DNA from: Patescibacteria group bacterium
GTDB taxonomy: Bacteria; Patescibacteriota; Patescibacteriia; UBA1558; GWA2-36-10
DNA length: 58,197 bases
Reading direction: 5' to 3'
Assembly (NCBI GenBank): GCA_041665545.1
Contig: JBAYIQ010000005.1
Location: 1 to 58,197 of the forward strand
In this document: in pieces, positions 12,383-47,880 of the stretch
How positions within the stretch are numbered: the stretch's first letter is position 1
How the letters are laid out: each line of letters starts with the position of its first letter
Position numbers and translations under genes: made by a program
Notes under the pieces: model-generated
The model's input: the letters and a program-made list of their open reading frames with translations, nothing else
What the model was told of the DNA's origin: nothing
Database searches by the model: none

Positions 12383-12411
12383 TTGACTTTATGTAATATA
12401 TATTGTAAAAT
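12383..12411 (+). promoter_or_regulatory. Sigma70-type promoter of the tRNA cluster
   Basis: TTGACT (12383-12388), 17 nt, TAAAAT (12406-12411). Confidence 0.65.
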
Positions 12412-12428: not shown

Positions 12429-12482
12429 GCCGAAGTGGCCCGCCCGGCGCGCCAATGGCGCACCTTTGGCGGATGAGTAGCT
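12429..12482 (+). ncRNA. Leader module: copy of tRNA-Leu nt 1-11 plus a GC-rich nested hairpin
   Basis: GCCGAAGTGGC (12429-12439) is identical to 12543-12553. It is followed by CCGCC-CG-GCGCC-AAT-GGCGC-ACCTTT-GGCGG. Confidence 0.6.
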
Positions 12483-12542
12483 TGTTTCAATCAACTTTGG
12501 TTTAATTAAAAAAGCACGCTTAGAATTTATAATTTACTTTAA

Positions 12543-12629
12543 GCCGAAGTGGCGGAACTGGCAGACGCGCTGGACTCAAAATCCAGTGACCGCAAGGTCG
12601 TGGAGGTTCAAGTCCTCTCTTCGGTACCA
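12543..12629 (+). tRNA. tRNA-Leu(CAA), class II, CCA encoded
   Basis: Cloverleaf folded by hand. Acceptor GCCGAAG/CTTCGGT, anticodon loop CTCAAAA, long variable arm, T-loop TTCAAGT. Confidence 0.9.
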
Positions 12630-12784
12630 CTCGATTCGCCTTTTGCTTCGCAAAAGTCTCACTCGCGGTCTACGGTGCTTATCGCACCTCCGACCATTTC
12701 ACAATAAATAATCGAGTGCCCTGCCATTCGGCCCTGAGGGGCCTCAGGCCCTGAACGGGAGCGAACGAAGTGAGTCGAAGGGCA
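12630..12784 (+). ncRNA. Conserved structured RNA directly 3' of CCA, copy 1
   Basis: Long-range stem CACTCGATT / AATCGAGTG that includes C75-A76 of the tRNA. Hairpin CTTTTGC-TTC-GCAAAAG. Hairpin GGTC..GGTGC-TTATC-GCACC..GACC. A further GC-rich hairpin has a GAGCGAACGAAGTGAGTCGA core. Confidence 0.6.
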
Positions 12785-12796
12785 TAAACAATTTCA

Positions 12797-12843
12797 GGGC
12801 CGTTAGCTCAGTTTCGCCCACAGGGCGACCACCCAGTGGGTGG
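12797..12843 (+). ncRNA. Leader module: copy of tRNA-Ala nt 1-17 plus two GC hairpins
   Basis: GGGCCGTTAGCTCAGTT (12797-12813) is identical to 12895-12911. It is followed by TCGCCC-ACA-GGGCGA and CCACCC-AGT-GGGTGG. Confidence 0.6.
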
Positions 12844-12894
12844 GGCTAGTCATGTTGATTTGCTCATTAAAGTTTTTACAAAAAATTATTCTTT

Positions 12895-12971
12895 GGGCCG
12901 TTAGCTCAGTTGGCTAGAGCGCTTCCATGGCATGGAAGAGGTCGCAGGTTCGACCCCTGTACGGTCCACCA
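12895..12971 (+). tRNA. tRNA-Ala(GGC), CCA encoded
   Basis: 77-nt hand-folded cloverleaf with the G3:U70 identity pair and anticodon loop ATGGCAT. Confidence 0.9.
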
Positions 12972-13061
12972 TAAACCATTCGCTACGCTCAGGTTTATGG
13001 CACTGCCATTTTATTTAGGGCAGCGCCGTGAACTTGAGGAGCGTAAGCGACGAATAGTTCA

Positions 13062-13138
13062 CGGGGTGTGGCGCAGTTGGCTAGCGCGCACGCATGGGGT
13101 GCGTGAGGCCGGAGGTTCAAGTCCTCTCACCCCGACCA
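13062..13138 (+). tRNA. tRNA-Pro(GGG), CCA encoded
   Basis: 77 nt. Acceptor CGGGGTG/CACCCCG, anticodon loop ATGGGGT with G37. Confidence 0.9.
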
Positions 13139-13155
13139 ATTTATAAATTAATCGG

Positions 13156-13233
13156 GGCAGGGTAGCTCAGTTTGGTTAGAGCGTGGGACTCATAAGCCCG
13201 AGGTCGTGGGTTCGATCCCCACCCCTGCTACCA
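13156..13233 (+). tRNA. tRNA with CAU anticodon (elongator Met or Ile2; not resolvable by eye)
   Basis: 78 nt. Acceptor GGCAGGG/CCCTGCT, anticodon loop CTCATAA. Positions 31:39 are an A-G mismatch. Confidence 0.8.
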
Positions 13234-13342
13234 CTCGATTCGCCTTTTGCTCCGCAAAAGTCTCACTCGTGGTCTCCGGTGCTTATCGCACCTCCGACCA
13301 TTCTCCATATCATGAATCGAGTGTTCCGAGCGAAGTCGAGGG
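13234..13342 (+). ncRNA. Conserved structured RNA directly 3' of CCA, copy 2
   Basis: Near-identical to copy 1 across the core (CTCGATTCGCCTTTTGCTCCGCAAAAGTCTCACTCGTGGTCTCCGGTGCTTATCGCACCTCCGACCATT...GAATCGAGTG), plus a GAGCGAAGTCGA hairpin. Confidence 0.6.
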
Positions 13343-13406
13343 ACATGAGATAAAGAGAAGCGCATCGAGGGACACGAGAAATCACCATTCTCCAAAAAAA
13401 AACGGT

Positions 13407-13652
13407 ATGAAAAAATTTTTCTTTTATTTTGCCCGATGTAACGATAATACCCTTTATGCTGGTTACACAAATAATATAAAAAATAGAGAAATAAAACACA
13501 ACGACGGTAAGGGCGCAAAATACACTAAATGTAGATTACCAATAAAAATAATATACTGGGAGAAATTTGATACCAGGATTGAAGCCATGAAACGGGAAGC
13601 ACAAGTAAAACGTTGGAGTAAAATAAAAAAAGAAAAATTAATAAAAAATTAA
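13407..13652 (+). CDS. Mini GIY-YIG nuclease-family protein (81 aa)
   Basis: MKKFFFYFARCNDNTLYAGYTNNIKNREIKHN... has GIY-YIG-type motifs (LYAGYT, R..H, and a Glu in REAQVKRWS). I trimmed the track ORF 13206..13652 to the Met after the tRNA and its trailer. Confidence 0.7.
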   Translation: MKKFFFYFARCNDNTLYAGYTNNIKNREIKHNDGKGAKYTKCRLPIKIIYWEKFDTRIEAMKREAQVKRWSKIKKEKLIKN

Positions 13653-13722
13653 ATTTTTTACGACGCGGGGTAGCCCGCCCGGCACGCCTACGGCGAAGCC
13701 GTGGCGGACGGGAGCAGTACCA
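13653..13722 (+). ncRNA. Leader module: 21-nt copy of the tRNA-fMet 5' flank plus nt 1-10, then a GC-rich nested hairpin
   Basis: ATTTTTTACGACGCGGGGTAG (13653-13673) is identical to 13987-14007. The following CCCGCCCGGCACGCCTACGGCGAAGCCGTGGCGGA aligns with the Leu module. Confidence 0.6.
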
Positions 13723-13736
13723 CACTGAATATGCAT

Positions 13737-13985
13737 ATGAAAATATTACTTTTTTATACTTATGTCCTAAAAAGTAAAAAAGATAACAAATTGTATGTTG
13801 GATATACCGATAATCTAAACAAAAGAATCCAAAAACATAATGATGGAAAAGTTGAATCAACAAAAAATAGAAGACCATTTACATTATTATATTTTGAAGC
13901 TTGCCTAGATAAGTATAAAGCAATAAAAAGAGAAAAATATTTTAAAACGGGCTTTGGTAGGAGATTTTTAAAAAGTAGGATATAA
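13737..13985 (+). CDS. Mini GIY-YIG nuclease-family protein (82 aa), paralogue
   Basis: MKILLFYTYVLKSKKDNKLYVGYTDNLNKRIQKHN... with GIY-YIG-type motifs. It lies entirely between the 21-bp direct repeats that flank the tRNA-fMet 5' end. Confidence 0.7.
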   Translation: MKILLFYTYVLKSKKDNKLYVGYTDNLNKRIQKHNDGKVESTKNRRPFTLLYFEACLDKYKAIKREKYFKTGFGRRFLKSRI

Positions 13986-13997
13986 TATTTTTTACGA

Positions 13998-14073
13998 CGC
14001 GGGGTAGAGCAGTTGGCAGCTCGCCAGGCCCATAACCTGGAGGTCGCCGGTTCGAGTCCGGCCCCCGCTACCA
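13998..14073 (+). tRNA. Initiator tRNA-fMet(CAU), CCA encoded
   Basis: 76 nt. C1xU72 mismatch and an A11:U24 pair (initiator hallmarks). Anticodon loop is CCCATAA, so position 33 is C rather than U. Confidence 0.85.
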
Positions 14074-14117
14074 ATTTATACAATCCGAGGTAGCTCAGTG
14101 GTAGAGCAGTTGGCTGT

Positions 14118-14703
14118 ACATTTACATCGTGTATGTGGTATACTTATTGATGTATGCCAGATACAAGAAAATATGTCGATCGTGCTGAGTATTTAAAACA
14201 AGCAGTTGCTAAACGTCGTAAAGATGTGAAAATAATGCTTGTAAAATATAAGGGCGGTAAGTGTAAGACTTGTGGCTATAAAAAATCCGTAGAAGCTCTT
14301 GAGTTCCATCATATAAATGAAAGAAAAAAGAAGTTTGGAATTTCTGGGCAAGGATTAACTAGATCTTGGAAAAGTGTAAAGCAGGAAGCTGATAAATGCA
14401 TCTTGCTTTGCGCAAATTGCCACAGGGAATTGCACGCAAAATAGTGCAGCTTCCTCAAGTAATTGAGGTTGACAAACGGGGTGAACTGTCCCGCAAAACG
14501 GGAGCCCGCCAAAGGCGGTGCCGGGAAGCCTAAGTCTAAAAGATATGGTAATCCGCAGCCAAGCCCTGAACCAGATGGTTCAGGGAAGGTTCAGAGACTA
14601 TCCGAAAGGAGTAGGCAGTATTTACTAGCCGAAGCGCCCCGCATCCTAAAAAATTATAGGATGATGATATAGTCCATCCCTTTAGGAAACTTAAGGATCG
14701 ATG
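14118..14703 (+). mobile_element. Group I intron carrying an HNH ORF
   Basis: The 5' exon ends in U and the intron ends in G. Core strings CCGCAGCCAAGCCC (14553-14566), GTTCAGAGACTA (14589-14600) and GATATAGTCC (14666-14675) match the conserved catalytic-core blocks of Tetrahymena/Azoarcus-type introns as I remember them. I did not confidently identify P1 or the internal guide sequence by eye, so boundaries are accurate to within a few nt. Confidence 0.75.
14154..14444 (+). CDS. HNH homing-endonuclease-like protein (96 aa), intron-encoded
   Basis: CKTCGY...LEFHHINE...LLCANCHRELH is an HNH motif with two CxxC pairs. The ORF lies wholly inside the intron. Confidence 0.8.
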   Translation: MPDTRKYVDRAEYLKQAVAKRRKDVKIMLVKYKGGKCKTCGYKKSVEALEFHHINERKKKFGISGQGLTRSWKSVKQEADKCILLCANCHRELHAK

Positions 14704-14747
14704 TAACCAATTGGTCGTGGGTTCAAATCCCTCCCTCGGAGCCATTA

Positions 14748-21959: not shown

Positions 21960-21998
21960 TCAAAAAGAAAGGCGCTCGAGAGGGGTTTCTCGAGCGCC
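21960..21998 (-). terminator. Terminator of ORF 22028..22444
   Basis: 10-bp stem GGCGCTCGAG / CTCGAGCGCC, followed on the minus strand by TTTCTTTTT. Confidence 0.7.
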
Positions 21999-25280: not shown

Positions 25281-25352
25281 GGGAGGCGGTGCTACACAGC
25301 ACCGCCTCCCACTCCAAAACAAGAGGGATCTTTCGTAACCCCTCTTTTTTTA
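25281..25352 (+). terminator. Tandem hairpins/terminator after the flotillin gene
   Basis: 13-bp stem GGGAGGCGGTGCT-ACAC-AGCACCGCCTCCC, then AGAGGG...CCCTCT followed by a T-run. Confidence 0.65.
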
Positions 25353-47597: not shown

Positions 47598-47718
47598 ATG
47601 TCTCTCGACTCGCTACGCTCGCTCAAGACACTCGATTCATGATACGAAAATGGTCGTAGGTGCTGAAAAGCACCGGAGACCACGAGTGAGTTTTTTGCTA
47701 AGCAAAAAACGAATCGAG
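47598..47718 (-). ncRNA. Conserved structured RNA directly 3' of CCA, copy 3
   Basis: The minus strand reads CTCGATTCGTTTTTTGCTTAGCAAAAAACTCACTCGTGGTCTCCGGTGCTTTTCAGCACCTACGACCATT...GAATCGAGTG, plus a GAGCGAGCGTAGCGAGTCGA hairpin. It shows compensatory changes relative to copies 1 and 2. Confidence 0.6.
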
Positions 47719-47808
47719 TGGCGGAGAGGACAGGATTTGAACCTGCGAGGGATTTTACTCCCTACTCGCTTTCCAAGCGAGCGCACTAGACCACTATGCG
47801 ACCTCTCC
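47719..47808 (-). tRNA. tRNA-Ser(GGA), class II, CCA encoded
   Basis: 90-nt hand-folded cloverleaf. Acceptor GGAGAGG/CCTCTCC, anticodon loop TTGGAAA and a long variable arm. Confidence 0.9.
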
Positions 47809-47826
47809 ATATTATAAATATTATTT

Positions 47827-47880
47827 ACGCTTTTCCCGCCCGCCCCGCAGCGCGGGGCAAGCGGGATATGCGACCTCTCC
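47827..47880 (-). ncRNA. Leader module: copy of tRNA-Ser nt 1-14 plus a GC-rich nested hairpin
   Basis: GGAGAGGTCGCATA (complement of 47867-47880) is identical to the tRNA 5' end (47795-47808). It is followed by CCCGC-TT-GCCCCGC-GCT-GCGGGGC-G-GGCGGG. Confidence 0.6.

Follow-up and report, generated by a model that had tools for sequence, protein, structure and literature searches.

The window analyzed here, a stretch of 58,197 nucleotides (nt) from a Patescibacteria group bacterium (assembly GCA_041665545.1, contig JBAYIQ010000005.1), contains a tRNA gene array that houses two short open reading frames (ORFs) on the plus strand: ORF1 (13407-13652, 81 amino acids (aa)) and ORF2 (13737-13985, 82 aa). 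On the sequence evidence, both probably encode functional nucleases that belong to two lineages of selfish modules colonizing the flanks of tRNA genes in the candidate phyla radiation (CPR). We infer mobility from partner tRNAs that change, duplicated tRNA fragments that are specific to the partner, nested, tandem and decayed copies, positions at contig ends and a patchy distribution. An original prediction for the window had proposed two minimal GIY-YIG genes inside the array, and both are present at the places it named.

Both proteins match the GIY-YIG profile of Pfam (PF01541) above the gathering score and across the domain (ORF1: E 6e-17, profile positions 2-76 of 78; ORF2: E 8e-18, positions 2-72 of 78), and the two share 46% identity over 56 residues. 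Tyr20, Gly22, Arg30, His34 and Glu66 (ORF2 numbering) are invariant in both families and align with Tyr17, Gly19, Arg27, His31 and Glu75 of I-TevI. The first catalytic tyrosine is located in the motif FYTY or FFFY. Counterparts of the catalytic Tyr, Tyr, Gly, Arg, His and Glu are thus kept in the alignment, the outcome that the original prediction had asked of its catalytic-residue check. For the distal asparagine of the GIY-YIG set no clear counterpart exists, as the proteins stop at that point; members of both families are 78-87 aa long and consist of the catalytic core only.

The nearest solved structures are 1zg2 (BH0048, 5e-8) and 1ywl (EF2693, 1e-6), followed by SLX1 (7wme, 0.002), with marginal matches only to the structures of UvrC and I-TevI. 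ORF1 and ORF2 share with the UPF0213/YhbQ family (COG2827), to which BH0048 and EF2693 belong, and with the nuclease domain of SLX1 a single GIY-YIG domain of 80-100 aa and its catalytic residues. SLX1 differs in having a RING domain and in needing SLX4. Homing endonucleases join the catalytic domain to a separate DNA-binding domain, an architecture that neither ORF has. ORF1 is of the YhbQ-like 'GAKYT...W' type. ORF2 is of the 'YFKTGFGRRFLK' type, whose members (78-82 aa) carry an invariant C-terminal tail of their own, YFKTGFGRRFLKxRI, that sets them apart from UPF0213/YhbQ. No NCBIfam equivalog was found for either ORF (TIGR01453 scores 19.8 against a cutoff of 56 bits). Both proteins are complete, contain a single GIY-YIG domain and belong to the UPF0213/YhbQ-SLX1 branch. 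In a comparison with L081, a related strain at 94% amino-acid identity, ORF1 has a pN/pS of 0.12 and ORF2 one of 0.06, and both genes are therefore maintained by selection; synonymous divergence is 0.21 for ORF1 and 0.43 for ORF2.

To judge whether relatives of the two genes prefer tRNA genes and the modules beside them, a survey that the original prediction had suggested, we treated the families separately, as a joint alignment was too diverse for a locus search. ORF2 was surveyed in genome contigs with one genome per species (177 relatives found; 80 loci examined, nearly all in CPR metagenome-assembled genomes), and ORF1 in metagenome contigs, with 80 metagenome loci of distant ORF1-type genes (47-61% identical to ORF1) as the control. 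Linkage to a tRNA gene is found at 63 of the 80 ORF2-type loci but at only 1 of the 80 control loci (Fisher p < 1e-22). At 59 of the linked loci, a same-strand tRNA starts between -10 and +122 nt from the stop codon, 39 of them within 25 nt; at three (L015, L031 and L056) the downstream tRNA is split by a group I intron, and one (L004) is nested behind a second unit. The contig ends too early to judge at four loci, and the 13 loci that have no downstream tRNA include nine with the GC palindrome described below, or half of it, in its place. The expected tRNA linkage thus holds for the ORF2 family and, as described below, for close CPR relatives of ORF1, but not for distant UPF0213-type members.

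These figures bear on the possibility that tRNA arrays are simply hot spots for foreign DNA in which both ORFs happened to land. tRNA genes are well-known sites of integration, and a third nuclease gene nearby, the HNH gene of a tRNA-Asn intron, is present for an unrelated and known reason. Nevertheless, the difference between 63 of 80 and 1 of 80, the same-strand placement, the spacing of mostly 0-10 nt and a module architecture that recurs across many genomes effectively refute a chance neighborhood, which we regard as very improbable. The partner tRNAs of ORF2-type genes span 13 amino-acid identities, and the nearest protein neighbor has the same partner in only 15 of 62 cases. The phylogeny that had been called for, a neighbor-joining tree of 84 ORF2-type proteins, is star-like and poorly resolved, with weak conservation of the tRNA partner.

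In the window, an exact direct repeat of 21 nt (13653-13673 and 13987-14007; 26 nt with two mismatches) brackets a GC hairpin and ORF2, the stop codon of which ends one nt before the right copy. The right copy continues into the intact tRNA-fMet (13987-14073, plus strand; tRNA at 13998-14073, found by ARAGORN and Rfam). The left copy (13653-13718, plus strand) comprises 11 nt of flank and nt 1-10 of the tRNA (13664-13673), is then split by a palindrome, HP (13674-13712), and resumes with nt 11-16 of the tRNA (AGCAGT, 13713-13718). The original prediction correctly placed ORF2 between 21-bp repeats at the tRNA-fMet 5' end; the hairpin, which it put merely ahead of ORF2, sits inside the duplicated tRNA fragment.

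The same architecture recurs throughout the ORF2 family. An exact copy of at least 12 nt of the partner tRNA's 5' end is found 50-120 nt upstream of the ATG in 25 of 57 loci and in none of 207 controls, where the longest match is 11 nt. These exact copies are 12-39 nt long and begin a few nt upstream of tRNA +1; the duplicated segment as a whole varies from about 8 to more than 39 nt. A typical unit consists of the interrupted tRNA 5' copy, a leader of 5-39 nt, a 78-82-aa ORF, 0-10 nt and the intact tRNA, with a variant in the order ORF, HP, tRNA. This variant characterizes a tRNA-Lys(UUU) group, in which HP separates the ORF from tRNA +1 and a sigma-70-like promoter belongs to the ORF itself. 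HP is a conserved GC palindrome of 35-75 nt with the consensus CCCGCCCGC-AACGCC..GAGC..GCTTGC..GATG-GCGGGCGGG. It interrupts the left copy after nt 5-22 of the tRNA, which then resumes for 6-11 nt and ends at nt 16-32. At least 41 of the 80 loci have HP near the ORF (<=60 nt upstream or <=110 nt downstream), compared with a background of 4 HP in 338 kb. The features of the window itself far exceed chance, with 0 matches expected from shuffled sequence in the pattern searches. HP is present at 37 of 65 ORF-adjacent tRNAs and at 2 of 36 other tRNAs in the same loci, an enrichment of about tenfold. Of the two module linkages originally predicted, that of ORF2-type genes with the GC hairpin is therefore borne out, and that of ORF1 with its RNA element is suggestive only. 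HP is found in both orientations (15:11), an indifference to direction that argues for action as a palindrome in DNA and against a sequence-specific signal in RNA.

ORF-less versions of the 5' unit are present at three tRNA genes of the window, as originally predicted, and have the same geometry as ORF-bearing units. At tRNA-Leu(CAA) (12543-12629, plus strand; ARAGORN, Rfam), the unit (12429-12473, plus strand) consists of a copy of tRNA nt 1-10 (12429-12438) and a GC hairpin (12439-12473) with 79% identity to its fMet counterpart; between the unit and the intact tRNA lies an AT-rich spacer that includes a promoter-like site (12506-12533). At tRNA-Ala(GGC) (12895-12971, plus strand; ARAGORN, Rfam), nt 1-17 (12797-12813, an exact 17-nt repeat), two GC hairpins (12814-12843) and nt 18-23 (12844-12849) form the unit (12797-12849, plus strand). 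At the seventh tRNA, tRNA-Ser(GGA) (47719-47808, minus strand), a copy of nt 1-14 (47880-47867) is followed by a GC hairpin (47866-47834; fold z = -4.6) within a unit spanning 47834-47880 (minus strand). The original prediction had likened ORF-bearing and ORF-less units to autonomous elements and miniature inverted-repeat transposable elements (MITEs). This remains plausible in that the cis sequences are common to copies with and without an ORF; other marks expected of MITE-like elements were not found, namely derivatives by internal deletion, a fixed target-site duplication at defined ends, ORF remnants, an empty site and recent transposition.

The ORF-less units also bear on a different explanation, namely that HP (and the RNA element) are palindromic repeats that target tRNA genes by themselves, as repetitive extragenic palindromic (REP) sequences or mitochondrial GC clusters might, that the GIY-YIG genes are ordinary free-standing homing-type genes, and that the two co-occur because they share a niche. 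HP does occur without an ORF (at tRNA-Leu, tRNA-Ala and tRNA-Ser of the window and in L058, L072 and L016), and the ORF-less spacers hold no remnant of ORF2 (family hidden Markov model, hmmsearch E > 1). It has no target duplication of its own, nests in other HPs (L005, L021 and L010), occurs in either orientation and sits anywhere from nt 5 to nt 22 of the tRNA fragment; the RNA element likewise follows many tRNAs without ORF1. Two independent residents would, however, hardly give the tenfold enrichment of HP at ORF-adjacent tRNAs or its narrow distances to the left-copy end (6-11 nt) and to the ATG (5-39 nt). HP is also more conserved than the synonymous sites of ORF2: the left fragment and HP of the window and L081 show 0 differences in 60 nt. 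The fMet unit recurs in L051, a member of a different CPR lineage, with a single base changed in HP and an ORF protein that is only 69% identical. We therefore consider independent residence quite unlikely.

Several signs of turnover speak for the reading as selfish modules. Tandem or nested units occur in L016, L040, L005 and L021, and several copies share a contig or locus in L005/L049, L026, L004 and L029. In L016 (3311-3700), two tandem repeats of about 193 nt directly follow an intact tRNA-Ile; each contains an almost complete pseudo-tRNA-Ile(UAU), whose D-loop is interrupted by HP and whose T-loop carries 1 extra nt. In L040, two left copies follow one another. L035 holds a pseudogene, half-palindromes are also present, copies often lie at contig ends, and similar arrays (the window, L051 and L167) differ in which units they contain.

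The strongest competitor is a host (domesticated) function, in which the proteins would be housekeeping nucleases for repair or structure resolution, or RNA-processing enzymes, kept in tRNA operons for constitutive expression, with HP and the RNA element serving as signals for RNA stability or processing and the tRNA fragments arising as by-products. The low pN/pS, the 65-77% identity of ORF2-type proteins across many CPR lineages and the kinship with cellular UPF0213/SLX1 proteins fit such a role. So do the near absence of relatives from viruses, the conserved Tyr-Thr and Lys(UUU) loci, and an identical relative, P0058, found in the same stable context at all 10 places shown, drawn from 24 contigs. 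A host role would not predict that the partner tRNA changes freely, that its own 5' end is exactly duplicated, that loci accumulate several copies, pseudogenes and half-palindromes, that HP is used in both orientations, contrary to a sequence-specific RNA signal, or that many copies lie at contig breaks and are patchy among similar arrays. In light of these features, we judge a host function unlikely.

Several observations nonetheless weigh against selfish modules. Exact-protein lookups with a close relative of each ORF, the flanking exonuclease gene and P0058 revealed no empty site or insertion polymorphism; P0058 recurs in one context, and the lookup from the window's flank returned no arrangement other than that of the window. 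The strong purifying selection, and the synteny kept at some loci (the Tyr-Thr spacer and the ORF-HP-tRNA-Lys(UUU) group), would also suit a host function. The proteins have no DNA-binding domain, neither ORF has a PHROG match, and relatives occur in just 1 of 2.9 million viral contigs; the closest solved relatives are uncharacterized UPF0213 proteins and SLX1 rather than homing endonucleases. With the protein tree so poorly resolved, homing to one tRNA is inseparable from hopping between tRNAs. To these points add the lack of ORF2 remnants in ORF-less spacers and the presence of the RNA element after about half of the tRNAs in those genomes, which may make its link to ORF1 incidental.

This RNA element, element A, is about 95 nt long and forms three helices: an outer helix, CACTCGATTCG/CGAATCGAGTG, which begins at C75-A76 of the tRNA, and two internal hairpins connected by a conserved CTCRCTCGTGGTCT stretch. 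In the window it follows the CCA of tRNA-Leu (copy 1, ORF-less, 12628-12718, plus strand; 98.9 bits, fold z = -5.9), of a tRNA with anticodon CAU (elongator Met or Ile2; 13156-13233, plus strand; ARAGORN, Rfam) upstream of ORF1 (copy 2, 13232-13323, plus strand; 116.5 bits, z = -7.5), and of tRNA-Ser (copy 3, ORF-less, 47629-47720, minus strand; 110.7 bits, z = -8.1). Copy 2 corresponds to the CCA-linked structured RNA that ORF1 had been predicted to follow, and copies 1 and 3 to the predicted versions without an ORF. Over 74 nt the Leu and Met copies share 96% identity, and in the Ser copy compensatory changes (helix 2) preserve the helices. From seven copies we built a covariance model (R1), which detects others after tRNA-Met, tRNA-Ala, tRNA-Thr and tRNA-Pro; all R1 matches begin at the CCA of a same-strand tRNA, except for one weak match (L172/L173). 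In an alignment fitted to the model, which favors the structure, 13-14 of 28 pairs have double changes, 87.7% of cells are paired (73% when shuffled and about 35% with partners slid), 55 cells show double changes compared with 20, and none of 500 shuffles equals the observed covariation score. The outer helix could equally represent the terminal inverted repeats of a DNA element. Neither element A nor HP matches Rfam 15, including its HDV-like, hatchet and other ribozymes (region at E <= 1; whole window at the gathering score). An HDV-like or theta fold was considered for element A and rejected by inspection, as the order of helices does not fit.

Close CPR relatives of ORF1 are found behind such a post-CCA element, as the original prediction implied, at five loci with three different upstream tRNAs. 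In the window and L081, tRNA-Met and element A precede ORF1, and tRNA-fMet follows. Element A also separates the ORF1-type gene from tRNA-Pro in L164 (upstream of the methionyl-tRNA synthetase gene), from tRNA-Tyr in L166 and in L176/L177 (both followed by tRNA-Thr), and from tRNA-fMet in L167, where the ORF end overlaps the downstream tRNA-Asn. The element is truncated in L084 and absent from L174, both with tRNA-Tyr upstream and tRNA-Thr downstream, and it is absent from L170, where tRNA-Ile lies 16 nt upstream and tRNA-Phe 0 nt downstream; the gene in L178 is not tRNA-linked. The Tyr-Thr loci have flanking genes in common and therefore probably represent one event. Overall, element A lies ahead of 5-6 of 8 ORF1 contexts and after 5 of about 17 other tRNAs. 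A specific pairing of ORF1 with element A is suggestive; with the element behind about half of the tRNAs, the association could reflect that both occupy tRNA spacers. L081 has a variant of the same shape in place of the window's element A (99 of 181 positions identical). This divergence exceeds the synonymous divergence of the adjacent ORF1 and points to turnover.

A GAGCGAAG-loop hairpin region and leader (13324-13406, plus strand) connect element A copy 2 to ORF1. ORF1 ends 11 nt ahead of the left fMet fragment and hence also adjoins the 5' side of the next tRNA; the arrangement in the window therefore looks nested, with the ORF2 unit inserted behind ORF1. A GAGCG(A/T)AGCGA-like loop motif recurs in either orientation in spacer hairpins of the window (12972-13061, 12719-12790, 13324-13380 and, on the minus strand, 47628-47597) and is also seen in the interior of many HP palindromes, that of L012 among them.

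Promoter-like sites on the plus strand are found at 12383-12411 and 12506-12533, both upstream of tRNA-Leu, and none is present in 12534-14114; downstream of tRNA-Asn there is a hairpin with a T run behind it. ORF1 and ORF2 thus appear to be transcribed within the tRNA precursor. In most loci the ORF2-type stop codon lies 0-10 nt from tRNA +1, so transcription of the tRNA must pass through the ORF. RNase P generates the 5' end of tRNAs, and a cut at +1 would part the mRNA from the tRNA. The ORFs would accordingly be expressed from a polycistronic tRNA precursor, from which the RNase P cut at the downstream tRNA +1 would free the tRNA. The host tRNA would therefore keep its function, and the element would always be transcribed.

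How the selfish modules might move can be outlined in a speculative way. The nuclease would act on DNA at or near the tRNA D-arm and HP. As it has no DNA-binding domain, we propose that it is probably a structure-specific cutter of the extruded palindrome; kinship with SLX1 and the constant spacing of 6-11 nt between HP and the left-copy end favor this idea. Such cuts could help the module to be copied into further tRNA genes or genomes, the variable-length duplication of the 5' part of the recipient tRNA would arise at insertion, and HP-only and A-only units would be non-autonomous or decayed relatives. The tRNA target is conserved across phyla, which may explain the 65-77% identity of the proteins across CPR lineages. 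It is possible, and we raise it only tentatively, that HP and a 78-aa SLX1-like GIY-YIG nuclease constitute an unrecognized class of mobile element that enters the D-arm region of any tRNA and regenerates an intact tRNA through the 5' duplication, with element A as a new RNA for tRNA 3'-end processing (a self-cleaver or a decoy for RNase P or RNase Z) that lets the parasite sit on the CCA.

Two other routes to the duplications were considered. Campbell-type homologous integration into a different tRNA was rejected: the tRNAs it produced would be chimeric, but normally both copies, left and right, correspond to one tRNA. An origin of the variable duplications by target-primed reverse transcription, as in retroelements, was set aside as speculation; the units contain no reverse transcriptase. 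In L036 and L075, the left tRNA copy differs in the acceptor stem and matches in the D-arm, which could record transfer from another allele or tRNA, or co-conversion. L051 (2390-2900 and 3655-3745) is dense in tRNA-Leu and tRNA-Ala pseudo-fragments broken by several different GC hairpins; one pseudo-fragment has a hairpin in place of the T-arm, and an ORF-less unit lies ahead of tRNA-Asn.

Full-text literature searches, with most subscription journals outside their coverage, returned no published association of GIY-YIG genes with tRNAs in CPR and none of these modules. Phage T4 SegB is a free-standing GIY-YIG homing endonuclease encoded in the T4 tRNA gene cluster that drives its own inheritance by cutting the tRNA gene region (PMC2330249). 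Like ORF1 and ORF2, it is a GIY-YIG nuclease gene among tRNA genes; unlike the ORF2 units, it is phage-borne and has one fixed site, without a duplicated tRNA fragment or palindrome. SegB is reportedly also about three times larger than ORF1 or ORF2 and has a DNA-binding domain. GIY-YIG ORFs have been described in CPR rRNA genes, in insertions other than group I and group II introns; they are sparse, and the authors judged them to be outside a homing context (Tsurumaki et al. 2024, PMC11270868). These ORFs come from the same phylum and lie in or beside structural-RNA genes, a likeness of setting, but they are inside rRNA genes, and no tRNA association, palindrome or duplicated fragment was reported.

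HP finds its closest parallels among mobile palindromes. Bacterial REP sequences and bacterial interspersed mosaic elements (BIMEs), together with REP-associated tyrosine transposases (RAYTs), are GC-rich palindromic mobile repeats. The GC clusters of yeast mitochondria are likewise GC-rich palindromic mobile repeats, in a compact, AT-rich genome (PMC4478555). Like these, HP is a short GC-rich hairpin that appears to spread in an AT-rich genome and occurs in both orientations and with nesting, and mitochondrial GC clusters lie, as HP does, near free-standing endonuclease ORFs and tRNA genes. HP differs in residing almost only within tRNA-derived sequence beside an ORF2-type gene, and its associated enzyme is a GIY-YIG nuclease rather than the HUH (RAYT) transposase of REP sequences. 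Perfect GC-rich palindromes also occur in the window away from tRNAs (645-679, 699-722, 21971-21998 and 25281-25310); their sequence is unlike HP, and they are possibly terminators. Element A may be compared with theta (HDV-like) ribozymes, which abut tRNA 3' ends in gut phages and have been proposed to process the 3' trailer (PMC10879173). Theta ribozymes start within a few nt of the tRNA 3' end, as element A starts at the CCA. Element A has a simple three-helix topology, an outer helix that pairs with C75-A76 and no match to an Rfam ribozyme, and it follows CCA-encoding chromosomal tRNAs rather than phage tRNAs.

If the modules are selfish, they would provide the first biological role for part of the large, uncharacterized UPF0213/YhbQ family and, at 78 aa, be about the smallest protein-coding selfish elements known. 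They would illustrate how essential tRNA genes present in single copy, in a genome of about 1 Mb, can harbor a parasite that does not kill the host, as it rides the tRNA precursor and leaves an intact tRNA behind. In practical terms, the units break assemblies, and pseudo-tRNA fragments confuse annotation.

The remaining parts of the array are of more familiar kinds. tRNA-Pro(GGG) (13062-13138, plus strand; ARAGORN, Rfam) has no flanking module. tRNA-Asn(GUU) (14084-14744, plus strand) is split at anticodon position 35/36 into a 5' exon (14084-14117) and a 3' exon (14704-14744) by a group I intron (14118-14703, plus strand; RF00028, 81 bits) of 586 nt, and ARAGORN misses the split gene. The intron contains the HNH ORF (14154-14444, plus strand), and the three nuclease ORFs together span 1038 nt (13407-14444), in line with the 1.1 kb given in the original prediction. 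A group I intron with an HNH homing endonuclease at position 35/36 of tRNA-Asn(GUU) has been published for Patescibacteria (PMC13011429). The window intron shares its tRNA, insertion site and HNH family, and the third nuclease gene is therefore of a known kind. The intron-HNH unit is unrelated in mechanism to the GIY-YIG units, with which it shares only the neighborhood. In a closely related strain (L081, 909-983) the tRNA-Asn allele has no intron, which documents the intron's empty site cleanly.

A third lineage of mini GIY-YIG genes, of about 85-92 aa and with a KYLKGGxGR-type C-terminus, was noticed in L001 (3442-3717), L004 (3313-3567), L019, L038, L039 and L064. It lies mostly directly downstream of a tRNA 3' end, and the L004 copy lies directly upstream of tRNA-Lys; several nuclease lineages therefore appear to share the tRNA-flank niche in CPR genomes. 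On a Paceibacterota contig (L065, 3276-3349), 5 nt behind an ORF2-type gene, ARAGORN calls a tRNA with anticodon UUA, which would read UAA stop codons; it may be a suppressor or a miscall. Typically CPR-type loci also carry other labels: many public records (L003, L009, L011, L014, L015, L017 and others) are assigned to 'uncultured Gammaproteobacteria' and one each to Methylomirabilota, Bdellovibrionales and Methanosarcinaceae, which suggests mislabeled bins, contamination or transfer.

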